Assembly: GCA_022705905.1 (NCBI GenBank)
Contig: JAKJDO010000001.1
Span: 28,692 to 92,691, forward strand
Length of the DNA: 64,000 nucleotides
Direction: 5' to 3'
Source of the DNA: Patescibacteria group bacterium
GTDB taxonomy: Bacteria > Patescibacteriota > Patescibacteriia > Patescibacteriales > UBA12075
The notes below the pieces were generated by a model. The model saw only the letters and a program-made list of their open reading frames with translations. It made no database searches and had not been told where the DNA came from. Shown here in pieces: positions 1,107-61,930 of this stretch. The first letter of the stretch is position 1; the number at the start of each line of letters is the position of its first letter. Position numbers and translations under genes: made by a program.

Positions 1107-1652
1107 TCAAGGCGCAGCCAAAATCTCAACTTTTAATACTTTTATGCCAAATATTTTAGCCTCTTCCCTGTCTTTAAACCAAATATCAATATAATCATTA
1201 TAACGCGGGTTCATTCTATCTCTAACCACAAACACTTTATCGCCAAAGACGTCCGGCATCTTTATTTTTGTCCCAAAAGGCAAAAAATTAGCTGCTACCG
1301 AATCTTCGATGCCGTGTTCACACAAATTAAAACCATTGGCCGTCCGACAAGGATCGCCATCAGTTTGCCAAACATCAGAGGAATAAGCTGTAACCTTAAA
1401 AAAACCGCTCCTAGCAATTAATAAATCACCGTTCTCTGGCAAAAAATTCAATATTAGCAGGTCGTCGTCAGCAACAATTTGTTCTTCGGCTAACAACGAC
1501 GCTTGACCATCTTCATTAATTTGGCTGGCTAAAACTGGGACGGGATAAAGAATGAACTCGAAAACAACTAAAAAAACCAAGGACAAAACTATTTTCTTCC
1601 ACGTTTTTTTTGATAAAAATATATTATTTTTTTGTCTGTCTGGGGACGACAT
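1107..1652 (-). CDS. Secreted 3D-domain protein (MltA/YuiC/YabE-like peptidoglycan lytic-transglycosylase fold) with an N-terminal signal/TM segment.
   Basis: Hydrophobic N-terminus. The C-terminal block VTAYSSDVWQTDGDP...VVRDRM...IDIWF carries the three spaced Asp residues typical of the 3D domain. Confidence 0.55.
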   Translation of the reverse strand: MSSPDRQKNNIFLSKKTWKKIVLSLVFLVVFEFILYPVPVLASQINEDGQASLLAEEQIVADDDLLILNFLPENGDLLIARSGFFKVTAYSSDVWQTDGDPCRTANGFNLCEHGIEDSVAANFLPFGTKIKMPDVFGDKVFVVRDRMNPRYNDYIDIWFKDREEAKIFGIKVLKVEILAAP

Positions 1653-1860
1653 ACTTTATATAAAACAGTAAAAATAACTAATATTGCAAACAAAAAACCC
1701 TATCTCCAATAATTTTCCTTGGATGAATAGGGATTCTCTTGCTTCTATTTATATCATATCATACCAGGCGATAAAAGTCAACGAAATAATAGACTTAATA
1801 GATAAAAAAGAAGTCTAAAAAATGAAAGATAGACTTCTTCTTGTATTTTAAATTTTATAA

Positions 1861-2391
1861 TTAAAAACAATTTGGATCATTCATGCACTGCTGCAGCCCA
1901 CTAGGGACTTCTTCAAAAGTAGTTTCTGTCCAAATATCTGAAAAACTCCAACTGCTCCACCATTCAGAAAAGGACCATCCGCCGCCCGATCCAGAGCTAG
2001 AACTAGTGTCAACTGCGCCAGAACCGAATGGTATGGCATTAAATACAAAATATGTTATGGAATAAGCGGCTACGATAATAACTAAGCCAATCACGGCTTT
2101 AGTTATTGTGTCTTTAGCCTTAGTTACTTTTTGTTCATCGCCGCTGGCCGTCATCCAATTGAAGCCGGCATAAATTATAAGAATAACAAAAATTATGCCC
2201 AATATGCTTAAAAACCCCTGGATAACAGCCGCCATAATTGACCCTACATTTTCTGTCGTGCTAAAACCGCTGCGGCTGACAAAGCGATCATATTGAGTGT
2301 CAGCTAAAACCGCATTAAATAAAAACAAGCTCAAAACAAAAAGAAAAATAAAAATTTTTAACTTAATTTTATTGTTTTTGATAGTAAGCAT
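1861..2391 (-). CDS. VirB2/TrbC-like (T4SS-type) pilin paralog 1. It has a signal peptide, a variable ectodomain, two TM helices and a Trp/Ser-rich Cys-containing C-terminal tail.
   Basis: Core LSILGIIFVILIIYAGFNWMTASGDEQKVTKAKDTITKAVIGLVIIVAAYSI is shared by all seven tandem genes. Confidence 0.6.
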   Translation of the reverse strand: MLTIKNNKIKLKIFIFLFVLSLFLFNAVLADTQYDRFVSRSGFSTTENVGSIMAAVIQGFLSILGIIFVILIIYAGFNWMTASGDEQKVTKAKDTITKAVIGLVIIVAAYSITYFVFNAIPFGSGAVDTSSSSGSGGGWSFSEWWSSWSFSDIWTETTFEEVPSGLQQCMNDPNCF

Positions 2392-2400
2392 AAAAAATTG

Positions 2401-2787
2401 TTAATTTTGTCTAGACATCATAATAACGCCAACCACCAATTGGCCAATGGCGTAAGCGCCGGCTGTAATTATCAGGCCGATTATGGCGCGCTGGATGGTG
2501 CTTTTAGCCTTGTCTACTTTAGAGTTATCTCCGGCCGCCACCATCCAATTATAACCGCCATACAAGATTAAAACTGTAAAAATTATGCCTAATAATGAAA
2601 ATAAAACTTTAACAATGTCGCCGGCCATTTCAGCGGCCGTATATTCCGTCGCGGTCTTATAACCGCTGCTTGACTGCACCTTTTCCAGCTTATTTAACGC
2701 GGCGCTTTGCGCAAACACAAAATAAGGCAATATTAAAATTGCCACCAGAAACAAAAGATAAAAACTATTTTTTATTTTTTTACGCAT
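2401..2787 (-). CDS. VirB2/TrbC-like pilin paralog 2.
   Basis: Signal peptide plus the conserved core LLGIIFTVLILYGGYNWMVAAGDNSKVDKAKSTIQRAIIGLIITAGAYAI. Confidence 0.6.
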   Translation of the reverse strand: MRKKIKNSFYLLFLVAILILPYFVFAQSAALNKLEKVQSSSGYKTATEYTAAEMAGDIVKVLFSLLGIIFTVLILYGGYNWMVAAGDNSKVDKAKSTIQRAIIGLIITAGAYAIGQLVVGVIMMSRQN

Positions 2788-2822
2788 GATTTTAACTAAA
2801 TAATTAATAGACGCTCACTTTT

Positions 2823-3254
2823 TTAAGAAGTTAAAGAGCGTTCATAGGGCGCCACTATATTCATAACTATAAAATAAGTAATGGCATAGGCGGCAACCAC
2901 GATAACCAGGCCGATAACCGCCTCAGTTATTAAATCCTTACCCTTGGCCACCTGCTGCTCCTTGCCCATGGCTGTCATCCATAAATAACCGCCGTAAACT
3001 ATTAAACAAATAAATATTATCCCCAAAAATGATAAAAATATATTTATTATTCTGGCAACAACAAATTCCGGTGTCGTCCCTGTCTGATAGCCGCTGGCTG
3101 CCCTGGTGTAGCCAAAAGGCGTTTCCAGACTGACGCTAAAAGCGTCTTTCAAATTAATGGCCTGCGCCGCCGAACCGAACAAAAAACATATAAAAACTAT
3201 AAAGATGATGTAGCTAAAACTTCTCTTCATAATTGCTAAAATCAATATGATCAA
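2823..3254 (-). CDS. VirB2/TrbC-like pilin paralog 3.
   Basis: Conserved core FLGIIFICLIVYGGYLWMTAMGKEQQVAKGKDLITEAVIGLVIVVAAYAI. Confidence 0.6.
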   Translation of the reverse strand: MIILILAIMKRSFSYIIFIVFICFLFGSAAQAINLKDAFSVSLETPFGYTRAASGYQTGTTPEFVVARIINIFLSFLGIIFICLIVYGGYLWMTAMGKEQQVAKGKDLITEAVIGLVIVVAAYAITYFIVMNIVAPYERSLTS

Positions 3255-3299
3255 AAAAAGTCACCGAAATTTTTAAAATTTTATGATTGATGGCCTGCT

Positions 3300-3770
3300 C
3301 TACTGGGAGGTCTGGGTGGTGACAGTAGAAGAATCAAAGGAAATAATGCCGGTATCAATAGCGCTAATTATAAAATAACTAATAGCGTAAGCGGCCATAA
3401 CTATTATCAGGCCGATTAAAGAATTAGTTAATATATCTTTTGCTTTTTGAACTTTTTGCTGATCGCCCTTGGCTGTCATCCAAATAAAGCCGGCATAAAC
3501 CATCAAAATAAGAAAAATCACTCCTAAAAAAGAAAGTAAGGTTTGAATAACACTGCCGGAAATTTGAATTAATTTGTTCTCTGCCTGGTCAAGCTGCAAA
3601 GAGTTGTCATACCCCGCTCCGCCGCCAACTTTTTTCAAGCCGTTATTAAACAGGGTGGCGGAATTATCGGCTGCAAAAGACACTGAGGCAATTTGACTCG
3701 TGACAAAAATGCAAAAGAATATAACGGCTATAAATTTTAATTTTATAAATAACCTTTTATTTTTATTCAT
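3300..3770 (-). CDS. VirB2/TrbC-like pilin paralog 4.
   Basis: Conserved core FLGVIFLILMVYAGFIWMTAKGDQQKVQKAKDILTNSLIGLIIVMAAYAI. Confidence 0.6.
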   Translation of the reverse strand: MNKNKRLFIKLKFIAVIFFCIFVTSQIASVSFAADNSATLFNNGLKKVGGGAGYDNSLQLDQAENKLIQISGSVIQTLLSFLGVIFLILMVYAGFIWMTAKGDQQKVQKAKDILTNSLIGLIIVMAAYAISYFIISAIDTGIISFDSSTVTTQTSQ

Positions 3771-3775
3771 GGTGA

Positions 3776-4168
3776 TTAGCTGGTTATAACACTGCCGACA
3801 TAAGCGGTAATAGCATAAGCGGCTATAACTATTATTAAGCCGACAGCTGCGGCTTCCATTATATCTTTAGCCGTTTGCACGTTTTGTTGATTGCCGCGAG
3901 CTAACATCCAGGTAAAGCCGCCATAAATCATTAAAATTAAAAACAAAACGCCGATAAAAGACAGGCCGACGCCTATCGCGTTACCTATGGTCGTTGAGAT
4001 ATCTTTTTCCGGCAAGGTGCCATAAGCTTTTTCTGAAGATTGAGTTAAGCCGCTAAGAGCGCTGTCAACTGCTTTGCCCAGCGCGCTGTCAGCAATGCCA
4101 TAGCAAACAAAAAAAGCCAAAAAAATGGCTAAAAATGCTATCGTCTTTTTATATAAACCATTGCCCAT
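3776..4168 (-). CDS. VirB2/TrbC-like pilin paralog 5.
   Basis: Conserved core FIGVLFLILMIYGGFTWMLARGNQQNVQTAKDIMEAAAVGLIIVIAAYAI. Confidence 0.6.
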   Translation of the reverse strand: MGNGLYKKTIAFLAIFLAFFVCYGIADSALGKAVDSALSGLTQSSEKAYGTLPEKDISTTIGNAIGVGLSFIGVLFLILMIYGGFTWMLARGNQQNVQTAKDIMEAAAVGLIIVIAAYAITAYVGSVITS

Positions 4169-4287
4169 AAATTTTATTGCCTTTTGACGAAATTACTTCC
4201 GCCGCTATTAACACGAATTTTTCTTGCTAATGGCGGCGGACCCCTGAAAACAGGGGCCGCTTTTTATCTGCAATAAATATTCTGCGC

Positions 4288-4680
4288 TTAAGGGGTCGGG
4301 TTGCCAACGATGTTGTAAGCGAAGCCAACAACGATCTGAACGATGGCGTAAGCAGCGATAATGATGACTAAACCGATAATACCGGCGATAATAGTCTTTT
4401 TAGCCGAACCAACTCTGTCTTCATTGCCGCCAGCAGTAAGCCAAAGGAAGCCTCCGTAGAGGATTACGATAACGGCGATAATGCCCAAGAAAGTCATCAA
4501 ATAAGTGACGATATTAACTGCGGCCTCTTTTGGATCGTTGACGCTACTTGGTAAACCGAAATCGGCATCATTTATACCCAAAGGGTCAGTCGCTAGGGCG
4601 GGCAAGGCAACTAAAAGAGCTGGCATAATCATCGCTAATAAAGCCACGGCTGCCAATGCATTTTTAAATGTTTTTTTCAT
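4288..4680 (-). CDS. VirB2/TrbC-like pilin paralog 6.
   Basis: Conserved core FLGIIAVIVILYGGFLWLTAGGNEDRVGSAKKTIIAGIIGLVIIIAAYAIV. It is the closest paralog of gene 7. Confidence 0.6.
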   Translation of the reverse strand: MKKTFKNALAAVALLAMIMPALLVALPALATDPLGINDADFGLPSSVNDPKEAAVNIVTYLMTFLGIIAVIVILYGGFLWLTAGGNEDRVGSAKKTIIAGIIGLVIIIAAYAIVQIVVGFAYNIVGNPTP

Positions 4681-4793
4681 AATTTTTGACCTTTTAAATT
4701 AGTTAATAAATTTGACCTTTTTTTATATATTTATTAAATTTTTGCTATTGATTATTAATATCTAGATATAAACAATGTGTTTGTTTTTTTATT

Positions 4794-5174
4794 TTAGGCG
4801 CCGCTAAGCACGTTCATAGTCGTACTCACGATTATTTGAACTATAGCATAGGCTGAAATAATTATCACGAGTCCGATTAATCCGGCAATAATTGTTTTTT
4901 TGGCATCAGCAATTTTATCTTCATTGCCGCCAGCCACCATCCATTTAAAACCGCCCAGTAAAACTACAACTACGGCGATAATGCCCAAGAAAGTCATCAA
5001 ATACTTAACGGTGTTAACTGCTGCCGCTCGGGGATCACTGACTGAATTAGGCAGGCCTAAACTGCCTGCTTCATTCAATCCTAGATCGGCTTGGGCTTGA
5101 ACAGCTACCGCTAAAGCAGGAAAAATTATTAAAGCTAATGCGAGAGCTAAAAATAAATTAATTTTTTTGATCAT
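4794..5174 (-). CDS. VirB2/TrbC-like pilin paralog 7.
   Basis: Conserved core FLGIIAVVVVLLGGFKWMVAGGNEDKIADAKKTIIAGLIGLVIIISAYAIV. A G-rich RBS (gggaagggggtgagtc) lies just before the ATG. Confidence 0.6.
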   Translation of the reverse strand: MIKKINLFLALALALIIFPALAVAVQAQADLGLNEAGSLGLPNSVSDPRAAAVNTVKYLMTFLGIIAVVVVLLGGFKWMVAGGNEDKIADAKKTIIAGLIGLVIIISAYAIVQIIVSTTMNVLSGA

Positions 5175-5460
5175 GACTCACCCCCTTCCCGAATTTCTTC
5201 TGCTTGAAAAGAGACTTTTGGCATTTTAAAACAGAAAAAATTATTACTTATTTAGTTATCAACATTAATAATATTTTAACACTTTTTTTGTCAAAAAACA
5301 AATAATAGTGGTAAAATATAGCTGAATGGAAAAAATCTGCGGCTTCCGGCTAGGTTTTGCCTCGCGCCAAGCGAAGGAGTCGGTAGAATAAAGAAACTAT
5401 AGGCGGATAATCCAGCTGCTTCCTGTTTTTTTCTTTAATTTTTTACTATCTTATTATTTT

Positions 5461-7101
5461 GTGAAAAAAAATACCGGCAACATAATAATCTGGTCTTTGT
5501 TTTATAGCTTTGTTTTTGTTTTCCTTATTTATAATTCTTTTAGCTATCTTGACCCGGATTTAGGCTGGCATCTGAAAGTAGGCCAGCAAATAGCGGCCGA
5601 ACGAGCCGTCCCGGGTCTGGAAAATTACAATTATACATTGTCAGGTAAAAGTTGGGTTGATCATGAATGGCTAGCGAACCTGATTATTTTTCTAATCTAT
5701 GACCAGTTCGGCTACCTTGTTTTATCCGCGTTGTTTGCCCTGTTAATAATTCTGATTTTAATAATTCTAAACAGACAAATAAAAAAAATATGCCGGCAAT
5801 CTACCGAAAATTCTGCTTGGCTAACAATAATTATAATAATTTTAGAAATCCTGGGTGTGATAGCCGTCGCGCCGCATATTGGCGTCAGGATACAAGAAGT
5901 AGGGCTATTGTTTCTATTGCTGCTTCTGTTGGTTATCCAAAAATTTGAATCTGCTAAAAACTGGAAAACACTGTTATGGCTGCTGCCAATTTTATATTTT
6001 TGGTCTTGTTTGCACGGCAGTTTTTTAATCAGTCTTTTTATTTTAGGTTTTTGGATTTTTATAAAAATTATTGAGCGGCTGATTGCCGCCCGCTTTGGCT
6101 GTCGCCGTTTTTATTTTTTGAACTTTGAAAATAAAACAACTTGGCTGGACATAAAAAATTTCGCCTGGCTGGCATCAGCAGCTATAGCTAGCACCTTTTT
6201 TACTCCCTATGGTTTTAAGCTATATTCCTTTTTAGCCGACTATACTGATAATTTCTATGCTGAACATATTGTTGAGTGGCTGCCGGTTTTTACTTTTCCC
6301 TTTTCTTACGCGCAAATGTTTTACCTGTCTACGGCTATAGCCGTTGTCTTGATTTATTGCCTTAACTTTCACTATTCTCGAAAAAAAAACATCGCCTTCA
6401 CTCCTTCAATAAACCTCTGGCAGCTAGGCCTCTTTTTTGTTTTTTTGTTTTTAGCTTTTAAGTCACGACGTCACTTCCCGCTTTTTTTTATTGTCTCTCT
6501 ACCCATTATAGTGCAAATAATTTTTAATGAATTTCAATCGGCCAAAATTAACTTCAATCTTTTTAGAGGCTTTTTAATTAAATTTTATTTGCTGTCAGCC
6601 ATACTGCTGGCGGCAGCTGGATTAATTTTAAAAACTAATTTTACCAACGAACCATTTTTAAATAAAAATTTTTGCCAAACCTACCCCTGCGCCGCCATTA
6701 ATTTTCTAAAAAATAATGGCCAATATTCCAACCTGCGCTTATTTAACGATTATAATTGGGGCGGTTTTATGATTTGGACCTGGCCGGGGAAAAAAATATT
6801 TACAGACGGTCGTCTGCCACAATACCCCTACAATAATCATACCCTCCTAGAGGAATACTATGCATTTTTTGACGAGAAAAAAACAGAGGAGCGACTAGAC
6901 CAACATAACATTGAGCTCGTCTTGCTAAAAATAGAAAAACCACGAAAAATAAAAAGGTGGGAGCAAATAGTCTTCGGAATCAAAGATAGAGAGACTAAAA
7001 ATAATTTATCTAATTATTTAAGTGGCGCTAAAACATGGCGCTTGGTTTACACGGATGATATTAGCCAAATTTATGTTAAAAATAACAACGCCAATCAATA
7101 G
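5461..7101 (+). CDS. Polytopic membrane protein with more than 10 predicted TM helices and a C-terminal soluble domain. This is probably a GT-C fold glycosyltransferase or an oligosaccharyl/mannosyl-transferase-like protein.
   Basis: The hydrophobicity pattern is visible in the translation, and the gene sits in a glycosylation gene cluster. A promoter-like TTGTCA-18-TAAAAT lies at about 5296-5325. Confidence 0.4.
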   Translation: MKKNTGNIIIWSLFYSFVFVFLIYNSFSYLDPDLGWHLKVGQQIAAERAVPGLENYNYTLSGKSWVDHEWLANLIIFLIYDQFGYLVLSALFALLIILILIILNRQIKKICRQSTENSAWLTIIIIILEILGVIAVAPHIGVRIQEVGLLFLLLLLLVIQKFESAKNWKTLLWLLPILYFWSCLHGSFLISLFILGFWIFIKIIERLIAARFGCRRFYFLNFENKTTWLDIKNFAWLASAAIASTFFTPYGFKLYSFLADYTDNFYAEHIVEWLPVFTFPFSYAQMFYLSTAIAVVLIYCLNFHYSRKKNIAFTPSINLWQLGLFFVFLFLAFKSRRHFPLFFIVSLPIIVQIIFNEFQSAKINFNLFRGFLIKFYLLSAILLAAAGLILKTNFTNEPFLNKNFCQTYPCAAINFLKNNGQYSNLRLFNDYNWGGFMIWTWPGKKIFTDGRLPQYPYNNHTLLEEYYAFFDEKKTEERLDQHNIELVLLKIEKPRKIKRWEQIVFGIKDRETKNNLSNYLSGAKTWRLVYTDDISQIYVKNNNANQ

Positions 7102-8506
7102 CAACAACAAAATTTTGTCTTCCTTGAATATTTACCGGCTATTCTTCTGGATTTTCCTGTCTCTTTTAACCGTCTTACTCCACTCCAAACATTATATTGA
7201 TATTGACGAAGGACATGTTTTAGACGGAGCTTGGAATTTACTTAACGGTAAAAAACTATATTTTGATTTTTTTGAGTTTACCCCTCCTGGCGCTTATTAT
7301 TTAGTGCTTTGGTTATGGCAAATATTCGGCGTTAATTATTTAGTAGCTAAAATCGCGTCTTTAGCCGCGCTACTTCTAGCCGCGCTTGGTATTTATAAAA
7401 TTTGGTCGGCTGTAAGCCGCTATTTTAACATCAGCCGAGATTCTGTCTCTATATATCTAAGCATTTTTATTTTTATAATTTCCACCACCCACCTACCGAC
7501 TATCAGTTACCATACCTTCAATCTCGCTTTTACTGTCTGGGCGGTTTATTTTTTTATAAAAGCGCTCTCGATCCAGCCAAATAAAAATATTATTTTTTTT
7601 TCCGGATTGCTAACTGGCGCAGCTGCTCTATTTATGCAAAACAAGGGCGGTGCTCTGTTTTTAACCTTATTCTTATTTACCCTTTTTTTATTAATTAAAG
7701 AAAGAAAAAAAATATGGCTGCAATCATTGCTAATTTTATCAGTTGCGACGACACTGCCGATTATAACCCTGGCGGCTTTCTGGCCAGTTGGTTTGCTTTT
7801 TAAAAATTTAATCGCATTCCCGATATTTAACTACACCAAAGTGGCAATGGTTCCTTTTTATCTACTCTTTTTCTTTATTATTGTCTGGACGGGTGTTATT
7901 TGGCTGCTTAGAAAAAAAACCGCCACCGCCATACAATTTCTTTTTTTCTGGCAATTTATTTTGTTGTTTTCTATTTATTCTTTGGCCGACCATGCGCATC
8001 TATTGCTAGCTATATTCCCACTACTGGCGCTACTACCCGCTGTCCTTAATGAAATCAAAACGTCAATTTACAAAAATTATTTTTTTATCCTGACGGTGGT
8101 AACTATTTTTATCATTGTCTATCCCGCTCTTGTTTTTCTTAACAATTTTAAAAATTTGCCAACTGCAAAAGATTATAAATTTTTAGATTATATTGCCGCT
8201 AACTGCGACAAAACAGAATATTTATACGCCGGGCCGTTTATGTGCGGAATTTATTTTGAAACTCGAAAAATAAACCCAACGCCTTACGGCTGGCTTATTA
8301 CCAACCACCACACCGACGACCAATTTACCGACGCTAAAGAAAAATTAGAAATAAACACTCCAGCTTGCGCAATTTTAAATTACCAATTAGTCAAAAAATA
8401 TGGCTATAACATTGACAATCCGGTAGACAATTTTATTAAAGAGAACTATTATTTAGCTTATACCAGCAATGATGTAATGGTTTATAAAAAAAACCAACCA
8501 CAATAA
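7073..8506 (+). CDS. ArnT/PMT-family (GT83/GT39-like) GT-C membrane glycosyltransferase.
   Basis: A DE-type first-loop motif (DIDEGHVLDGAWNLL..PPGAYY) is followed by multiple TM helices. The ORF track starts it at 7022, overlapping the upstream gene. Internal Met codons at 7055 and 7073 are more likely starts, which implies translational coupling. Confidence 0.5.
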   Translation: MLKITTPINSNNKILSSLNIYRLFFWIFLSLLTVLLHSKHYIDIDEGHVLDGAWNLLNGKKLYFDFFEFTPPGAYYLVLWLWQIFGVNYLVAKIASLAALLLAALGIYKIWSAVSRYFNISRDSVSIYLSIFIFIISTTHLPTISYHTFNLAFTVWAVYFFIKALSIQPNKNIIFFSGLLTGAAALFMQNKGGALFLTLFLFTLFLLIKERKKIWLQSLLILSVATTLPIITLAAFWPVGLLFKNLIAFPIFNYTKVAMVPFYLLFFFIIVWTGVIWLLRKKTATAIQFLFFWQFILLFSIYSLADHAHLLLAIFPLLALLPAVLNEIKTSIYKNYFFILTVVTIFIIVYPALVFLNNFKNLPTAKDYKFLDYIAANCDKTEYLYAGPFMCGIYFETRKINPTPYGWLITNHHTDDQFTDAKEKLEINTPACAILNYQLVKKYGYNIDNPVDNFIKENYYLAYTSNDVMVYKKNQPQ

Positions 8507-8508
8507 AT

Positions 8509-9273
8509 ATGCTAAACGGAAAAAAAATCATAGTCGTTATGCCTGCTTACAATGCGGCCAAAACTCTTAAAAAAACTTACGAACAAATACCGCGAGATAT
8601 TGTTGACGATATCATTTTAGTTGACGATCGAAGCTCTGATGAAACTGTCAAGCAAGCCGAAAAATTGAACATCAAAACCTTTATACACGAAAAAAATAAA
8701 GGCTATGGCGGCAATCAAAAAACTTGCTATCAAGAGGCCCTTAAACTGGGCGCTGATATTGTAGTTATGCTACACCCCGATTATCAATACGACCCGCGCT
8801 TAATTACAGCTTTAAGTTCAATGATAGCTTCGGGTGTTTATGACGTGGCTCTCGGCTCAAGAATATTGGGAGGCGAGTCGGTTAAAGGCGGGATGCCCAG
8901 ATATAAATATTATCTAAATAGAATCCTGACTTTCATCCAAAATTTAGCCACCGGTAAAAAATTATCAGAATATCATACTGGCTACCGCGCCTTTTCCAGA
9001 AAAGTCCTGACTTCAATCCCTCTAAACAATAATTCTGATGATTTTGTGTTTGACAATCAGATGCTGATGCAAATTATATTTTTTAATTTTAAAATCGGTG
9101 AAATAAGCTGCCCGACAAAATACGAACCGGAATCGTCATCTATAAATTTTAAACGCAGTTGTGAATACGGCATCGGGGTTATTTTTACTATAATACAATT
9201 TTTTATAGCTAAATCAAAAATAACGACTATAAACATTTTCAGCGAAGAGAAGGCTAAAATTAATTTAAACTAA
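8509..9273 (+). CDS. GT2 polyprenyl-phosphate sugar synthase (Dpm1/ArnC/GtrB-like).
   Basis: N-terminal IVVMPAYNAAKTL...VDDRSSDET...KGYGGNQ is the GT2 Rossmann signature. Confidence 0.7.
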   Translation: MLNGKKIIVVMPAYNAAKTLKKTYEQIPRDIVDDIILVDDRSSDETVKQAEKLNIKTFIHEKNKGYGGNQKTCYQEALKLGADIVVMLHPDYQYDPRLITALSSMIASGVYDVALGSRILGGESVKGGMPRYKYYLNRILTFIQNLATGKKLSEYHTGYRAFSRKVLTSIPLNNNSDDFVFDNQMLMQIIFFNFKIGEISCPTKYEPESSSINFKRSCEYGIGVIFTIIQFFIAKSKITTINIFSEEKAKINLN

Positions 9274-10020
9274 ATGAAAGTCGATTTCTGCCTGCCGATT
9301 TATAATGAAGAAAAAATTTTAGAAAAAAATGTTTTAAAATTACTTAACTATTGCTCGGCGCAACAATTTAATTTTGATTGGAAAATTACTATCGTATCTA
9401 ACGGCTCTTCAGACAGCTCTTCAACTATTGGCGAAAAATTAAAAGCGGAAAATTCTGATAAAATTAATTTTATCAATATAAAAACCCCCGGCAGGGGTCA
9501 GGCCCTTAAAACGTATTGGCTAAAAAGTCCGGCTGATATAGTTGTTTACATGGATATTGATTTGGCCGTATCCTTGGACGAAATTCCGAGGCTAATCCAG
9601 CCTATTATTAATAAAACTTTTGATTTGCTTGTCGGCTCGCGCTTAATGCCGGAGTCAAAAATTAAAAGATCTTTTATTAGGGAGCTTAGCTCGCAAAGTT
9701 ACAATTTTTTATCCCGCGTTATTTTAAAACACAATTTTTCCGATATGCAATGCGGTTTTAAAGCTGTCAAAGCTGAAGTTTTTAAAAAAATCGCGCCGTA
9801 TATAAAAGACACTAAGTGGTTTTTTGATACCGAACTAATAATTTTTACAAAAATATTCGGTTATAAAATCAAAGAAATTCCGGTAAACTGGTCGGAAAAC
9901 AGATATGATGAGAGGGAAAGCAAGGTAAATATGTTCAAAGACAGTTTTAAATTCTTATATAATTTAATCGCGCTAAAAATAAGGCTGGCGAATATCAAAA
10001 AGAAAAATCTTGCCAATTAG
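9274..10020 (+). CDS. Second GT2-family glycosyltransferase.
   Basis: DFCLPIYNEEKIL...YMDIDLAV (DxD-type) motifs. The gene is adjacent to and in the same orientation as the first GT2. Confidence 0.65.
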   Translation: MKVDFCLPIYNEEKILEKNVLKLLNYCSAQQFNFDWKITIVSNGSSDSSSTIGEKLKAENSDKINFINIKTPGRGQALKTYWLKSPADIVVYMDIDLAVSLDEIPRLIQPIINKTFDLLVGSRLMPESKIKRSFIRELSSQSYNFLSRVILKHNFSDMQCGFKAVKAEVFKKIAPYIKDTKWFFDTELIIFTKIFGYKIKEIPVNWSENRYDERESKVNMFKDSFKFLYNLIALKIRLANIKKKNLAN

Positions 10021-22376: not shown

Positions 22377-23222
22377 TTATTTATGCTTTTTTTTATATAA
22401 ATCTAAGGTATTTTTAAACAACATAGCAATCGTCATTGGACCCACTCCACCAGGCACGGGGGTAATGAAGCTAGCCTTGTTTTTAACGTCTTCAAAATCA
22501 ACATCGCCGCAGACCTTATCACCGTCCCTAGTTATGCCAATATCAATTATGACAGCGTCTTTCTTAATAATGTCGGAACTTACAAGCTTTGCTTTGCCAA
22601 CGGCTGAAATTAGAAGGTCGGCCTTAGCAGTTTTCTCCACTAAATTGATATCGCTGGACTTGGCTATTTGGACTCTACCACCCATGCACTCCAAGACTTT
22701 TTTAACACTGCGCCCAAAAATTTCTGAATTAATAATTGCGCAAATATTTTTACCTCGCATATCATAATCAATGCTTTGTAAAATTTCTAAAATCACGGCA
22801 ATCAGCGGCGGAACTACCTCTTTGTTGTTGCAACTGGCAAATAATTTTTTAACATTTTCCGGATGAAAACGATCAACGTCTTTAACAGGGTCAATGGCTC
22901 TAATTATACCGTCTGTATCAAATCCTTCTGGTAGGGGCAGCTGAATCAAAACAGCATCAACACTATCGTCTTTATTAAGAAATTCTATGGTGTCGTAAAT
23001 TTCTCGTTCAGAAATATTTTCTGGACATTTATAAATATGGGTATCTATGCCTACCTTTTTTGCCTCCTTTTCTTTCAAATTAACATACAAAACAGAGTCT
23101 TCTCTGTCGCCAATCAAAATAATAGCCAAACTGGGTCGTTCGCCCTTCAAATCATAAATTTCTTTCGCTACCTCGTCTTTTATTTTTTCGGCTAAAACCT
23201 GACCATTTATTATTTGGGCCAT
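22377..23222 (-). CDS. folD: Bifunctional methylene-THF dehydrogenase/cyclohydrolase.
   Basis: Rossmann motif PGGVGPMT and the expected N-terminal substrate domain. Confidence 0.85.
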   Translation of the reverse strand: MAQIINGQVLAEKIKDEVAKEIYDLKGERPSLAIILIGDREDSVLYVNLKEKEAKKVGIDTHIYKCPENISEREIYDTIEFLNKDDSVDAVLIQLPLPEGFDTDGIIRAIDPVKDVDRFHPENVKKLFASCNNKEVVPPLIAVILEILQSIDYDMRGKNICAIINSEIFGRSVKKVLECMGGRVQIAKSSDINLVEKTAKADLLISAVGKAKLVSSDIIKKDAVIIDIGITRDGDKVCGDVDFEDVKNKASFITPVPGGVGPMTIAMLFKNTLDLYKKKHK

Positions 23223-23881
23223 AAAGCAATAAAATACTTAATAAAAATTAGGGCAATCAAATGCAAAGGATAAAACCAATAAAAAAAATGTTTTGGCAAT
23301 TTAATTTTAATCAGCTGTTGCTGAAAATATATTGCTGGTATAAATCCTAAAAATGAAAAAAGTAATAAAATTTGATCACTAACTTTATACGCCAATAAAG
23401 AAAGCGCTGCTAGACAAACTACCAAAAGTAATTTTTGCGATCTAAAAAAATAAAAAAGACTTGTCATTATAATCCCATAAAGTCCGTAATCGCATTTTAT
23501 AAAATAAGCAAAAATAATAATTAGCAAAGCCAGCCAATACTTCCTTTTATCACAAGCGAAGATGAACAAGAGAGATAGCAAAAGAGAAAATATAATATTT
23601 AATTCATTCTTGCCAAAAAGTATCATAAAAGGAATTTGTGATATAGCACCAAAAAATAATAATCGATAAAAGTACATCTTTAGATTGGAAGTGTGTCGAT
23701 AGCCGTCGGCTATACCAGCCGCAAAAATAGGAAAAGCGATCCTTCCAATAATACGTAAGGGCATTATTTGCGGAAAAAAAACCAAGCCAACGTGGTCAAC
23801 AATCATTGACAACGCTGCCGCCAATTTCAAAAAATCATTTTTATCATTAATCAAGGATAATCCACTGCTATTTATCACCAT
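23210..23881 (-). CDS. TraX-family polytopic membrane protein. F-pilin acetylase TraX belongs to this family.
   Basis: N-terminal LKLAAALSMIVDHVG matches the TraX signature (K-I-A-x-x-x-M-x-x-DH-x-G). There are 6-7 TM helices. Confidence 0.5.
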   Translation of the reverse strand: MVINSSGLSLINDKNDFLKLAAALSMIVDHVGLVFFPQIMPLRIIGRIAFPIFAAGIADGYRHTSNLKMYFYRLLFFGAISQIPFMILFGKNELNIIFSLLLSLLFIFACDKRKYWLALLIIIFAYFIKCDYGLYGIIMTSLFYFFRSQKLLLVVCLAALSLLAYKVSDQILLLFSFLGFIPAIYFQQQLIKIKLPKHFFYWFYPLHLIALIFIKYFIALWPK

Positions 23882-57275: not shown

Positions 57276-58403
57276 TTATTGTTTAATCGGCATAATAATA
57301 TAAATGTACCCCAAATCTTTTTCCGATTTTAACACACAGGGCGTATTGCCATCAATAATGCCTAATTTAATTGTATCGCCTTCAATATTGTTGACGCCAT
57401 CCAGTAAATAACGAAAATTAACGACGATGCCGTTGTCTTTACCATTTACTGCCGCTTCCAGCTCGGTAATATTTTCGCCAGTCTGGCTGGAAGAAGAAGA
57501 AATAATAATCTTATTTTTACCTAAAGGAAAATCCAAGTTAACATCATTGACGCCTGACTTCGAAAAAATCGACGCCGCCTTAACAGCGCGCACTAATTCA
57601 TCGCGATTAACCGACACGCTCGTCTCGCTTTTAGAAGGAATTATCTGCTTATAGTCAGGATACTGACCTTCAATCAATCTTGAAACTAACTCGGTATTAC
57701 CGATTATAAATAAAATCTGGTTGTCATTCACATAAAACTCTATGTCTTCGCTTTCTTCGCTCAAATTCTCATTTTTAACAGCTGACATTATTCTAATCAA
57801 CTCCTGTAGCGTCTTGGCTGGAATAATTATTTTTTTGTCGGTTTTAGAGTTTGTTTTTATTTTTATTTCTTTTTCCGCTAGTCGATAGCTATCCGTAGCG
57901 GCCATAATTAATTTATCGCCACTAAAATAAAACTGCACGCCCGTCAGCTCAATTCTAGTTTCACTGTTAGATACGGCAAAAATAACTTGCGACAAAGCTT
58001 TTCTAAACTCATTAGCTTCAGCTTTAAAATATTCTTTTCTTTCCACTTTTGGGATTAACGGAAATTCGTCTGCCTCCTGGCCACGCACTACTGTTTTATA
58101 ATTTTCGCTTTTAATTAATAAATTACTGTCTTTGCGCTCTATTTCCACTTTTTTGTTAGGCAACAAAGCAATAAATTCCGAAACGACCTTAGAATCGACT
58201 GTAAATACGCCCTCTTTTTCAATCTTGCCCCGGACAGTTGCTGTAATGCCAACTTCTAAATCAGTAGTTATCAACCTAATATTGCCGTCTTTAGCCTCAA
58301 TCATAACATTGTTCAGAATCGGCAAATTTACGTTTTTGCCGGCAATATGACTGGCAATTAAAATACCGCTTTTAAAATTTTCCTGAAGGCTGGTAATTTT
58401 CAT
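57276..58403 (-). CDS. dnaN: DNA polymerase III beta sliding clamp.
   Basis: 375 aa with a three-domain clamp pattern. It follows dnaA directly. Confidence 0.85.
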   Translation of the reverse strand: MKITSLQENFKSGILIASHIAGKNVNLPILNNVMIEAKDGNIRLITTDLEVGITATVRGKIEKEGVFTVDSKVVSEFIALLPNKKVEIERKDSNLLIKSENYKTVVRGQEADEFPLIPKVERKEYFKAEANEFRKALSQVIFAVSNSETRIELTGVQFYFSGDKLIMAATDSYRLAEKEIKIKTNSKTDKKIIIPAKTLQELIRIMSAVKNENLSEESEDIEFYVNDNQILFIIGNTELVSRLIEGQYPDYKQIIPSKSETSVSVNRDELVRAVKAASIFSKSGVNDVNLDFPLGKNKIIISSSSSQTGENITELEAAVNGKDNGIVVNFRYLLDGVNNIEGDTIKLGIIDGNTPCVLKSEKDLGYIYIIMPIKQ

Positions 58404-58414
58404 ATTTTTATAAA

Positions 58415-59767
58415 CTAATTGTTGTTATATAAAAGCTGTTTAATAGACTCTATGTCTTGCTTGATGCGCTCGTTGTCGTCCGCTTCTTTCGTAATTTTGT
58501 TAAAGGCATGCATGGCAGTAGTGTGGTCGCGACCGCCAATTTCCTGGCCAATGGTCGGATAAGACGTGTTGGTCTCTTTGCGCATTAAAAACATAATAAT
58601 CTGCCGCGGATAAACCAGCTCTTTTTTACGGCACTTGCCAGTCAAGTCCTTGGTTTCAACATCAAAATATTTAGAAACAGACTCAATAATGTCTTTGCCG
58701 GTAATTGACTTGGTTTTAGTTGAGGTGATGATGCTGCCTAAGACGCTCTTGGAAGAATCAATAGTTGGCTTGGTGTTGTTAAATTCATGAAAAGCAATTA
58801 ACCGGTTCAGCGCCCCCTCCAGCTCGCGAATGTTGCTTTGAATATTGTTGGCAATATAATACAAAATTTCCGGGTCTAAAGAATAATTTTTTTCGCGGCA
58901 TTTAGCTTCTAATATTGCCATTCTGGTTTCAATGTCTGGCTGGGCAATGTCAACAATCATGCCCCACTCAAATCTAGACAACAGCCTTTTTTCTAAAGCT
59001 GGAATGGATTTAGGCGGGCGATCACAAGTCAAAACAATTTGTTTATTAGTTTGGTGAAGTTCGTTAAAAGTATGAAAAAATTCTTCCTGGGTGCCGTCTT
59101 TACCGGCCATAAACTGAATATCGTCTATCAGCAACAAATCAACGTTACGATAAAGGTCTTTGAATTCTTTGGCCTTGCCATTTTTTACTGAATGAATATA
59201 ATCGTTGGTAAAACGTTCACAGGTGATATATAAAATTTTATTGGTTCTTTTTGAAATTTCATGACCCACGGCTTGCAACAGGTGTGTCTTGCCCAGACCC
59301 ACGCCGCCATAAATAAACAAGGGGTTATAAGCATTGCCCGGATTGGCGGCCACTGCCTGGCTGGCGGCGTGCGCCAATTCGTTGCCTTTGCCGACAATAA
59401 AGCTTTCAAAATTATAGCGGGCGTTCAAGCCAAACTGATTAATGGAAACGGGTTCGCTACTCGCTTCTTCTTTTTTTATTTTTATTTTTTTAAGCAAATC
59501 ATCCATCGGGCTGTTTCTTCTGGTTTCAACTTTATAAAATATCTGCTTAACCGTCTTGGTGCTGACACTCTGGATTGCGCCAGAAATTTGCTGATGATAC
59601 TTTTTTTCCAACCAAGCCTTAGTAAAGGTGTTGGGCACACAAATGACAACCTTTTCGTCTTCAAACGAAGAAATAAAAGTGTTTTTAAACCAGGTGGTGA
59701 AATTTGCCTTGGATAAATTAAGTTCTATTTCGCCAAGCACCGCCTGCCAAAGTTGATCGTGATTCAT
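58415..59767 (-). CDS. dnaA: Chromosomal replication initiator DnaA.
   Basis: Walker A GGVGLGKTHLL, sensor motifs, and a C-terminal DNA-binding domain. Confidence 0.9.
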   Translation of the reverse strand: MNHDQLWQAVLGEIELNLSKANFTTWFKNTFISSFEDEKVVICVPNTFTKAWLEKKYHQQISGAIQSVSTKTVKQIFYKVETRRNSPMDDLLKKIKIKKEEASSEPVSINQFGLNARYNFESFIVGKGNELAHAASQAVAANPGNAYNPLFIYGGVGLGKTHLLQAVGHEISKRTNKILYITCERFTNDYIHSVKNGKAKEFKDLYRNVDLLLIDDIQFMAGKDGTQEEFFHTFNELHQTNKQIVLTCDRPPKSIPALEKRLLSRFEWGMIVDIAQPDIETRMAILEAKCREKNYSLDPEILYYIANNIQSNIRELEGALNRLIAFHEFNNTKPTIDSSKSVLGSIITSTKTKSITGKDIIESVSKYFDVETKDLTGKCRKKELVYPRQIIMFLMRKETNTSYPTIGQEIGGRDHTTAMHAFNKITKEADDNERIKQDIESIKQLLYNNN

Positions 59768-60358
59768 AGCCCAATGGTTAATAGTTAATTTAAATTTATT
59801 CTTTTTTAAAAGCGTTTTTAATAGCAGTTGGAATTATACCAGATAATAAAACTTTTAAAAACCCTAATTTTGTTTACAAGTTGTTTATAAACAGTGGAAA
59901 ATAAACATTCCATTTTTATTTTTATAAAGCCGGTTAATTTTTAAAAACTCGTTGGCAACAACCTCTATTTTTATAATTTAATTAAATATATAAAGATAGT
60001 AATAGTAATAATAAGGAGGTGGTTAAAGTTTAATTAATCTTTAATTTGTTTAATAATAGCGGTAAATGGCTATAACAAACTGTTGACAAGCCTGACCGAC
60101 TTTTGTGGATTGGGTTTAATAAAATGTGCTTAACTTCTCGTCTGGTGTTTTTAATACTAATGTTTTACACCCCTTGTACCAAAAAAACAACAGACATCAA
60201 ACAACAAGGCCACAAACAATACCACCACTTAATCACAGATAAGTGCGTCTTAAAAACGTTGACGCTCCATTTTATTTTTTCTAATTGACTAAAAAAAATT
60301 AAAATGTTATGTTAATCAAGAAAATAATATAAAAATAATTTTGTAATAAATTTATTTT
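59768..60358. promoter_or_regulatory. Candidate oriC, or at least the dnaA promoter region: an AT-rich 590-bp spacer between divergent rpmH and dnaA.
   Basis: Conserved rnpA-rpmH/dnaA-dnaN synteny. Only degenerate DnaA boxes are visible (ttataaaca, tgtggattg). Confidence 0.4.
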
Positions 60359-60508
60359 ATGCCTAAAAGAACTTACCAGCCAAATAAGCGTCGGGCTTCG
60401 AAAAAACATGGCTTCCGCAAGCGCATGCAAACCAAGTCTGGCAGAAAAGTTATTAAAGCCCGAAAAAATAGGGGTCGTAAAGTTTTAACCAAGAAGAAAA
60501 TTAAATAA
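60359..60508 (+). CDS. rpmH: 50S ribosomal protein L34.
   Basis: Manual translation [49 protein letters not shown]. The gene is below the ORF-track length cutoff. Confidence 0.8.
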
Positions 60509-60541
60509 ATTTTTAAACTTTGTTTTTTTTGTGGTTAATGT

Positions 60542-60883
60542 ATGTTAAAAAAATATAACCGGTTGGCAAAAACGAAAGACATAGACAGCGTATTTAAATA
60601 TGGTAAAAATAATTTCAGTAATTTTTTAGGAGCCAAAATTTTAGACAACCAGTTGGTTTTTAATAGATTTGCTGTTGTTGTCGGCACTAAAATAAGCAAG
60701 AAGGCCGTAGTCAGAAACAAGATTAAAAGACAAATTAGAGAGATTATAAAACAAGAACAGCCTGATTTTAAAACAGGAAAAGACATAATTATTCTAACTT
60801 TGCCAGCGATTTTTAATAAAAAATTTGCTGATATTAGGGAAGATTTAATAAAGGTTTTTAAAAAAGCCAGACTTTATAAATAA
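60542..60883 (+). CDS. rnpA: RNase P protein component.
   Basis: 113-aa basic protein with an RNR-like motif ([12 protein letters not shown]). It directly follows rpmH. Confidence 0.8.
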
Positions 60884-61140
60884 TGAAAAACAGCTTCGTT
60901 TATCTACCTCGTTATTTTTTGATCACGATAATTAAGTTTTATCAAAAAACGTTATCGTTTGATCACGGCCTGTTTAAACATCTTTTTCCCTATGGATTTT
61001 GTCGTTTTAAACCAACTTGCTCTGAATATGCTATAGCAGCTATTGCTAAGTACGGAGTGATTAGAGGTGGGATAAAGTCTGCTTGGAGAGTTGTGCGCTG
61101 TAATCCGTTTAATAAGGGCGGTTACGATCCATTAAAATAA
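60883..61140 (+). CDS. yidD: Membrane protein insertion efficiency factor YidD.
   Basis: FYQKTLS...[10 protein letters not shown]...[11 protein letters not shown] signature. Confidence 0.8.
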
Positions 61141-61142
61141 TT

Positions 61143-61182
61143 CGCCCTCGCTTTGTTTGGAGGAGAGGGTCGGGGTGAGGTT
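61143..61182. repeat. G-rich repeat copy between yidD and yidC: cgccctcgctttgtttggaggagagggtcggggtgaggtt.
   Basis: Family with 36017, 40476 and 63968. This copy contains the yidC RBS. Confidence 0.45.
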
Positions 61183-61198
61183 AAAATAAATTAAATCA

Positions 61199-61930
61199 AT
61201 GGAACAAGGAATATTTTTTACATTTTTTTATCAGCCGATTTTAAATCTGGTGGTTTTTTTATATAACATTATTCCTGGCCAAGACCTGGGTTTAACAATT
61301 ATTGCCTTAACCATAATTATTAAGGCTGCGTTATTACCATTATCAAAAAGTTCAATTAAATCACAAAAAGCATTACAAGAGTTGCAGCCCAAGATAGATG
61401 AACTAAAGGCTAAGTATAAAGATAAAAAGGAGGAAATGGGCAAGGCCATGCTGGAGATGTATAAGCAGAATAAAATTAACCCGCTCTCTTCTTGCTTGCC
61501 GCTTATTATCCAACTCCCCTTCTTAATCGCCGTTTTTCAAGTTTTTCGCGATGGTTTAGCTAACGGCGCTCTAAATAGCGTTTATTCTTTTATAGATAAA
61601 CCAGAGGTTATAAATCAGGTGGCATTCGGCTTTCTCGATCTGTCAAAAAACCACAATATAGTTTTAGCGGTTTTAGCCGGCGCGGCTCAGTTTTGGCAAT
61701 CAAAAATGATGATGACAAAGCGCCCGGCTGTTAAGATTCCGGAATCAAAGGACGAAGATATGGCCGCGATTATGAATAAGCAGATGTTATATATCTTCCC
61801 ATTGATGACCGTTTGGTTCTCCTACACCTTTCCGGCTGGTCTAGCGCTTTATTGGTTTGTTCTTACACTACTTGGAGTCGCTCAGCAATATTACATTTTT
61901 AAAAGCAAGAAGAAGGACGAAGTAAAGTAA
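61199..61930 (+). CDS. yidC: Membrane protein insertase YidC (short form).
   Basis: 243 aa with 5 TM helices. It follows rpmH-rnpA-yidD in the conserved order. Confidence 0.8.
   Translation: MEQGIFFTFFYQPILNLVVFLYNIIPGQDLGLTIIALTIIIKAALLPLSKSSIKSQKALQELQPKIDELKAKYKDKKEEMGKAMLEMYKQNKINPLSSCLPLIIQLPFLIAVFQVFRDGLANGALNSVYSFIDKPEVINQVAFGFLDLSKNHNIVLAVLAGAAQFWQSKMMMTKRPAVKIPESKDEDMAAIMNKQMLYIFPLMTVWFSYTFPAGLALYWFVLTLLGVAQQYYIFKSKKKDEVK

Follow-up and report, generated by a model that had tools for sequence, protein, structure and literature searches.

In several described systems, among them Ppm1/Pmt, ArnC/ArnT, GtrB/GtrC and CsbB/YfhO, a family 2 glycosyltransferase (GT2) that synthesizes a polyprenyl-phosphate-linked sugar stands side by side with a glycosyltransferase of the C superfamily (GT-C). 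An enzyme of the latter class, TfpW, is encoded beside pilA in Pseudomonas aeruginosa group IV and arabinosylates the type IV pilin (bioRxiv 10.1101/2020.04.19.049825). In Patescibacteria, VirB2-like pilins of the type IV secretion system (T4SS) kind are widespread in gene arrays; a survey described 441 arrays, each made up of 2-11 strongly diverged pilin paralogues, and reported one array to be essential for epibiotic growth, and glycosyltransferases beside the arrays go unmentioned in its text (PMC12102498). Here we analyse a stretch of 64,000 nucleotides (nt), called the window below, from a Patescibacteria group bacterium (GenBank assembly GCA_022705905.1, contig JAKJDO010000001.1, positions 28,692 to 92,691). 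It holds a seven-gene pilin array of the kind described in that survey and, divergent from it, four packed open reading frames, ORF1 to ORF4, predicted to encode two GT-C proteins and then two GT2 enzymes (Table 1). A reading of the DNA letters, referred to here as the original prediction, had proposed the four genes as a polyprenyl-phosphate glycosylation cluster, and taken alone such a cluster is an ordinary kind of system. What is newly seen is that the core GT-C, from a family without a name, is conserved beside VirB2-like pilin arrays in Patescibacteria.

The ORF1 family is almost confined to Patescibacteria and its members are annotated as hypothetical. A word-indexed search with ORF1 returned 575 matches, and an exhaustive search returned 384 cluster representatives at E <= 1e-30 and 12,415 at E <= 1e-3; relatives occur in 335 species-level genomes. 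Synteny was surveyed at the 80 best loci from species-level genomes, 71 of which had enough upstream sequence. A divergent pilin gene lies no more than 700 nt from ORF1 in 62 of these 71. Over the 3 kb upstream of ORF1, pilin genes have a density of 1.7-1.8 per kb, which drops to 0 over the first 2 kb downstream. Downstream genes were counted over 72 related loci. A GT2 gene of the ORF4 type follows on the same strand in 52 of them and is directly adjacent in 36, whereas an ORF2-type gene is found in only 9 and an ORF3-like gene (at least 40% identity) in only 1. Because ORF2 and ORF3 are this rare, the conserved unit consists of the pilin array, ORF1 and ORF4; ORF2 and ORF3 are an accessory module placed between the two core genes in the lineage of the window. 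The unit of four genes in the original prediction thus shrinks to a conserved core of two, and the tight link of this core to the divergent VirB2-like pilin array directly upstream had been missed.

Adjacency to pilin genes is also kept in distant ORF1 subfamilies (about 32-34% identity), in differing arrangements. P0273 (32% identity; loci L087-89) is divergent from a six-pilin array, with a penicillin-binding protein gene next; P0294 (34%; L086) has pilin genes on both sides; and P0328 (L094) comes after a co-oriented run of pilin genes. The co-oriented run of L094 starts with a gene (1459-3531) for a 690-aa protein whose C-terminal domain is T4SS_pilin-like, and it ends in the ORF1-family gene, near dnaA and a T2SSE ATPase gene. 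The association with GT2 can go as far as fusion: P0377, a 713-aa protein from a metagenome, naturally joins an N-terminal GT2 domain to an ORF1-family GT-C domain (hhalign probability 99.9%) and keeps the motifs DPDLGWHL, WIDHEW and FIDGRGP.

No match in Pfam, NCBIfam or PDB sequences was found for ORF1, whether the query was the single sequence, a profile or all 54 family members. An AlphaFold2 model built on the 54 homologues reached a predicted local distance difference test (pLDDT) score of 92 and a predicted template modelling (pTM) score of 0.92. When this model was compared with the PDB by Foldseek, the 23 best matches (E <= 0.2) were all GT-C enzymes, with probabilities of 0.89-1.00, and included the C-mannosyltransferase DPY19, STT3/PglB/AglB, AftA, ALG9 and ArnT; no transporter scored down to E of about 0.2. 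The topology implied by the model has 11 transmembrane (TM) segments, and Lys and Arg make up 10 of 50 residues in the inside loops vs 5 of 85 in the outside loops. Residues invariant in the 54 sequences are D31, D33, D67-H68-E69, R143, H185, E272-W273, R337-H338 and D449-G-R451. D31-x-D33 comes directly after TM1 (5-28) and before the first loop helix (34-47). In the model topology, those invariant residues that belong to the membrane domain are found either in loops on the outer face or where helices end on that side; D449-G-R451 is part of the external C-terminal domain, a small alpha/beta domain. A GT-C active site with a lipid-phosphate-linked donor would be expected to have this predicted layout. 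At the level of the modelled fold ORF1 is a member of the GT-C superfamily, and it also carries an acidic motif after TM1; the original prediction had already taken the first large protein as GT-C-type.

The conserved partner of ORF1, ORF4, matches Pfam PF00535, and so does ORF3 (E 1.6e-21). As a single sequence, ORF4 came closest to structures of ArnC (E 5e-12) and also matched DPMS. With the family profile of 42 orthologues, the seven best PDB sequences were those of DPMS (1e-20), ArnC (5e-17) and GtrB (1e-10), and cytoplasmic GT2 enzymes were at least 100-fold weaker. The DxD motif D94-x-D96 is invariant across the orthologues. By its sequence ORF4 belongs to the class of GT2 polyprenyl-phosphate glycosyltransferases that holds DPMS, ArnC and GtrB. 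ORF3 finds DPMS (5mlz, E 2e-10) in the PDB, and its NCBIfam matches, AglJ, PpgS and a dolichyl-P-hexose transferase, are all far under the cutoffs. The two Dpm1/ArnC/GtrB-like synthases proposed earlier are borne out by these relatives.

ORF2 is the second GT-C protein. Its AlphaFold2 model, built on 38 homologues (pLDDT 91, pTM 0.91), has ArnT as the best Foldseek match (5f15, E 2e-6, TM-score 0.60), followed by PglB, AglB, DPY19 and ALG12. The acidic DE motif, IDIDEG, directly follows TM1, and D45 is invariant in the 38 homologues. PF13231 (PMT_2) is matched by 30 of the 38 (best E 1.4e-11); ORF2 of the window has no Pfam match itself, with nothing to PF13231 at E <= 0.1, and NCBIfam yields no family for it at E <= 1. 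No GT-C was retrieved when PDB sequences were searched with the profile. ORF2 is recognised by no sequence model of ArnT in NCBIfam or the PDB and does not classify as an ArnT orthologue; the DE motif in loop 1 and the ArnT-like modelled fold point to a PMT/ArnT-like GT-C, and the loop motif that had been read from the sequence is confirmed. The alignment between the family profiles of ORF1 and ORF2 runs from end to end (hhalign E 7.8e-5, probability 61%), and the two proteins are therefore distant paralogues. In two related loci, a class I S-adenosylmethionine methyltransferase gene takes the place of ORF2 and ORF3 (L003, 7627-8352; L092, 7631-8374). The next gene is a confirmed GT2 in L003 and encodes an unannotated 199-aa protein in L092. 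This insertion suggests a lineage-specific variation of glycan or acceptor modification.

How could these parts work together? Judged from sequence families and models, the cluster is a putative polyprenyl-phosphate-dependent glycosylation operon, a known kind of system. The significant Foldseek matches of ORF1 and ORF2 are all GT-C enzymes, with no unrelated transporters, and the ORF4 profile favours DPMS, ArnC and GtrB over cytoplasmic sugar-nucleotide families. Because neither of these outcomes, which would have spoken against it, occurred, the core of the biochemical interpretation stands: with two transferases of the GT-C class and a pair of GT2 enzymes like Dpm1, ArnC and GtrB, the cluster encodes the parts to make a polyprenyl-phosphate sugar and to transfer it outside. 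From the observed folds, family relations, operon packing and conserved synteny we infer a sugar, a carrier lipid, a flipping step and an acceptor. First, two GT2 enzymes, ORF4 of the core and the accessory ORF3, would load polyprenyl phosphate with a sugar taken from a nucleotide sugar, on the cytoplasmic side of the membrane. A flippase would then turn the polyprenyl-phosphate sugar across the membrane. On the outer face, ORF1 (core) and the ArnT/PMT_2-like ORF2 (accessory) would pass the sugar to their acceptors, and the acidic residues after TM1, D31/D33 in ORF1 and D45/E46 in ORF2, would be used in the transfer. For the ORF1/ORF4 pair, the synteny points to the pilins of the divergent upstream array, or a component of their pilus, as the acceptor. 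The pilins are a likely target because the ORF1 family nearly always adjoins pilin arrays, despite rearrangement. We have moderate confidence in this two-step, lipid-carrier-dependent glycosylation at the outer face of the membrane, with the VirB2-like pilins, or a component of their pilus, as the most likely acceptor of the core. A bolder proposal, that the ORF1 family is an unrecognised GT-C family dedicated to VirB2-like pilin glycosylation in Patescibacteria with the donor supplied by the adjacent GT2, is offered tentatively. If it is true, these would be the first glycosylated T4SS-type pilins. Appendages that have been implicated in the epibiotic lifestyle would then carry surface glycans that differ with the accessory module, ORF2/ORF3 in the window or the methyltransferases of L003 and L092. 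From the conserved GT-C/GT2 pair next to the arrays comes a concrete hypothesis on pilin maturation that can be tested by mutation, and a fold and a probable activity can be assigned to a large family of hypothetical proteins.

The array itself is well defined. Pfam T4SS_pilin (PF18895) matches five of its seven genes (E 1e-7 to 1e-10), a pilin hidden Markov model matches all seven and no other ORF in the window, and gene calling in L081 gives the same array. Ser and Thr are moderately enriched in the external C-terminal tails of the pilins, at 17-20% vs a background of 10.6%; one tail in the window reads ...DSSTVTTQTSQ. The outermost paralogue (1861-2391, 176 aa) has an unusual S/G/W-rich C-terminal extension of 50 residues (…SSSSGSGGGWSFSEWWSSWSFSDIW…CMNDPNCF), and prediction places this extension outside the membrane. 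A gene for a 181-aa protein without a Pfam match (1107-1652, - strand), at the far end of the array, is conserved in L090 (1643-2188) and L092 (1922-2458) and is followed by dksA/traR-type zinc-finger and lspA genes; it may be part of the pilin locus.

Several points weigh against glycosylation of the pilins by this route. Common descent within a single clade of the Candidate Phyla Radiation could account for part of the synteny, and glycosylation of bacterial conjugative pili has yet to be described (PMC9905601). Adjacent pilins are missing at 9 of the 71 loci and for the distant members P0297, P0365 and P0299 (L084, L093, L095); P0299 keeps its GT2 neighbour. The 73 orthologues of the nearest pilin have no conserved acceptor Ser/Thr or N-x-S/T sequon, their only conserved external motifs being DFGLN and DPR. 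No flippase gene was found in the cluster, the locus being the scope of that search. In ORF3 and ORF4, no TM segment passes the Kyte-Doolittle threshold, so that neither has the C-terminal TM anchor typical of ArnC, GtrB and archaeal DPMS, and their best NCBIfam scores are 66 and 61 bits vs cutoffs of 325-529 (ArnC, AglJ, PpgS, PgfS). GT2 members without an anchor do exist, human DPM1 being an example; in sequence ORF3 and ORF4 resemble such anchor-less members of the class and are orthologous to no named enzyme.

The strongest alternative keeps the biochemistry and changes the acceptor, which would be a general component of the envelope such as a teichoic-acid-like polymer, a lipoglycan, or S-layer or other surface proteins; the pilin adjacency would then be an inherited gene order without functional meaning. 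The best structural match of ORF2, ArnT, is a modifier of lipid A, and both the pilins without a conserved acceptor residue and the ORF1-family members without adjacent pilins agree with such an acceptor. Close relatives share the gene order of the whole region, with lspA, dksA and the 181-aa gene, and vertical inheritance therefore contributes to the adjacency. However, at about 32% identity the adjacency outlasts rearrangement and the loss of all other neighbours, in divergent, flanking and co-oriented forms, and pilin genes are not scattered, with none in the other 58 kb of the window. We consider a general envelope acceptor unlikely, but as the first of the alternatives to be kept in mind.

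Pilin glycosylation from a monophosphate-linked donor may also be set against a different chemistry, in which ORF1 is an oligosaccharyltransferase of the STT3/PglB/AglB type and protein receives from it, en bloc, a preassembled glycan carried on polyprenyl diphosphate. The highest TM-scores of the ORF1 model are indeed to STT3 subunits (0.53-0.57), and its C-terminal domain matches the C-terminal globular domain of AglB (3vu0, TMt 0.52, E 0.05). TM-scores of about 0.55 are, however, generic among GT-C enzymes. The STT3 family of Pfam matches neither ORF1 nor any of the 54 family members, and the WWDYG motif of GT66 oligosaccharyltransferases was not found in the ORF1 sequence; the likeness to GT66 (STT3/PglB/AglB) is at the fold level only. 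The cluster has no initiating phosphoglycosyltransferase or Wzx-type flippase, and the conserved partner ORF4 resembles a synthase of monophosphate sugars. Altogether we find an oligosaccharyltransferase improbable here.

Table 1. Features of the pilin and glycosyltransferase locus, in positions of the window.
Feature	Position	Strand	Description
Seven VirB2-like T4SS pilin paralogues	1861-5174	-	Divergent from ORF1; proposed acceptor set
Pilin genes	1861-2391, 2401-2787, 2823-3254, 3300-3770, 3776-4168, 4288-4680, 4794-5174	-	
Promoter-like site	5288-5317	+	TTGTCA-18-TAAAAT, TG extended -10; best-scoring site in scan
Ancestral ORF1 start ATG and 21-codon remnant ORF	5326-5391	+	ATG 8 nt after the -10
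Lineage-specific GC-rich insertion	5337-5460	+	About 125-135 nt; missing in close relatives
ORF1	5461-7101	+	546 aa; predicted GT-C-fold glycosyltransferase of an unnamed family; conserved core gene
ORF2	7073-8506	+	477 aa; putative ArnT/PMT_2-like GT-C; accessory; start candidates 7022, 7055, 7073, 7115
ORF3	8509-9273	+	254 aa; GT2 resembling DPMS, AglJ, PpgS; accessory
ORF4	9274-10020	+	248 aa; GT2 resembling ArnC, DPMS; conserved partner of ORF1

The four genes are indeed tightly packed on one strand, with spacers of 2 nt between ORF2 and ORF3 and 0 nt between ORF3 and ORF4. The overlap of ORF1 and ORF2 given earlier (7022-7101) holds for the maximal ORF2 (7022-8506) only. Because public gene calls start ORF2 at 7073 (477 aa, P0121) or at 7055 (483 aa), the overlap is probably 29 or 47 nt and not 80 nt, and with the TTG at 7115, also possible as a start, it would be gone. 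The N-termini of ORF2 homologues agree with the start at 7073, and in L090 the equivalent junction overlaps by 4 nt. ORF2 is 100% identical to BWY51_00689 of "Parcubacteria group bacterium ADurb.Bin316", and ORF1 groups in one cluster with BWY51_00690. The 3' ends of ORF4 and the convergent truB gene overlap by 26 nt (9995-10020), and likewise in L081 and L082. The only four ORFs between the pilin array and truB include no gene for a small GtrA-like flippase with four TM segments.

Upstream of ORF1, the promoter that had been read as TTGTCA-18-TAAAAT lies in a block that L090 and L092, the two closest relatives, share almost unchanged. As the ORF1 proteins of these loci are only 55% and 53% identical to that of the window, the conservation of the block supports a real promoter. 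In both relatives the start codon of ORF1 comes 5-24 nt after the -10, which gives a leaderless transcript or a very short leader. In the window, ATGGAAAAAATCT (ATG 5326) aligns with the ORF1 start of L092, ATGTGTAAAAAATCT; the remnant ORF from this ATG is in frame with ORF1 and stops at TAA 5389-5391, and ORF1 resumes at GTG 5461. The interruption is rich in GC, with a GC fraction of 0.5-0.62 at 5335-5395 vs 0.1-0.25 in the flanks. It is not present in L090, L092, L003 or L011, and the spacer from pilin to ORF1 measures 286 nt in the window vs a median of 143 nt in 62 related loci. The segment is real sequence, since it is identical in three independent assemblies. No second copy was found in the window, nothing similar in the 80 related loci by nhmmer or blastn, no tRNA by a tRNA scan, and 0 matches in each of two exact-pattern scans of metagenome contigs. 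A search for terminal inverted repeats and target-site duplications at the insertion gave only low-complexity A/T matches such as GAAAAAAT. An origin from a mobile element, as a miniature inverted-repeat transposable element, is unsupported, with neither terminal inverted repeats nor another copy.

The original prediction had seen a GC-rich structured leader at 5335-5450 and proposed an Rfam scan of it. The GC-rich patch is real; its structure and conservation did not hold up. On the + strand of 5175-5460, which covers the proposed leader, Rfam gave no match even at E <= 10, and the sole match of the scan was a trivial one to CrcZ on the - strand (13.6 bits). The segment folds no better than shuffled sequence (z = 0.13 on the + strand and 1.25 on the - strand). 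Could it still be a functional cis-regulatory RNA, a riboswitch or attenuator that controls the operon? Its place between a conserved promoter and the start codon, the T-runs at its end (5419-5433) and its identity in the three assemblies would fit. Yet the segment is missing in the closest relatives, where the start codon follows the -10 by 5-24 nt, and this absence, the minimum free energy equal to that of shuffles, the empty Rfam scan and the lack of anything similar among the related loci make a regulatory RNA highly improbable. The GC-rich segment is best described, from its sequence, as a lineage-specific insertion and not as a conserved regulatory RNA.

The idea that ORF1 is no enzyme and serves as a structural membrane component of the T4SS, a VirB6/TrbL-like channel, may draw on the polytopic membrane proteins that are often encoded beside virB2 genes, but it is barely credible given that no TrbL/VirB6 family of Pfam matches, that all Foldseek matches at E <= 0.2 are GT-C glycosyltransferases, that GT-C catalysis typically involves an acidic motif like the invariant one after TM1 and that the family adjoins, or is fused to, GT2 enzymes.

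Two observations concern the wider window. About 18 kb from the pilin array, a gene at 23210-23881 (- strand) encodes a 223-aa protein that matches Pfam TraX (PF05857, E 1.7e-37). On F plasmids, TraX N-acetylates the VirB2-type F-pilin; the protein of the window is a possible second pilin-modifying enzyme. Farther away, at 57276-61930, are genes that we take, from their N-terminal sequences, to be dnaN and dnaA (- strand) and rnpA, yidD and yidC (+ strand). The intergenic gap between the two groups, at about 59.8-60.5 kb and with a GC fraction of 0.30, is probably the replication origin, some 55 kb from the pilin and glycosyltransferase locus.

Compared with the Ppm1/Pmt, ArnC/ArnT and GtrB/GtrC class, the window has GT2 enzymes closest to DPMS, ArnC and GtrB, and its GT-C proteins share the acidic motif after TM1 and the external C-terminal domain. 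Unlike in these two-component systems, ORF1 fits none of the sequence models of their GT-C families, and the operon holds two GT-C and two GT2 genes. The GT2 enzymes differ from ArnC and GtrB in having no TM anchors and in scoring far under the equivalog cutoffs. No flippase of the GtrA, ArnE/F or GtcA type is in the cluster, in contrast to the Gtr and Arn systems; with no small GtrA-like gene, it is not a three-gene system of the GtrA/B/C type. In the Pgf system of Streptococcus mutans (PgfS, a GT2, with PgfM1, PgfE and PgfM2), a GT2 and two polytopic membrane proteins glycosylate a surface protein. ORF3 and ORF4 match PgfS of NCBIfam weakly (E 1e-8 to 1e-9; 34-38 bits vs a cutoff of 500), the cluster of the window is without an epimerase, and the proposed acceptors differ. 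TfpW resembles ORF1 in its GT-C class, in the conserved acidic motif of its first external loop and in its gene position beside a pilin gene, and its donor is lipid-linked. It differs in acting on a type IV pilus pilin and not on a VirB2-like T4SS pilin, and in having a tetratricopeptide repeat C-terminal domain where ORF1 has its alpha/beta domain. By analogy, TfpW may be regarded as the nearest functional precedent for ORF1, and the link between pilin arrays and a GT-C/GT2 pair is new here.

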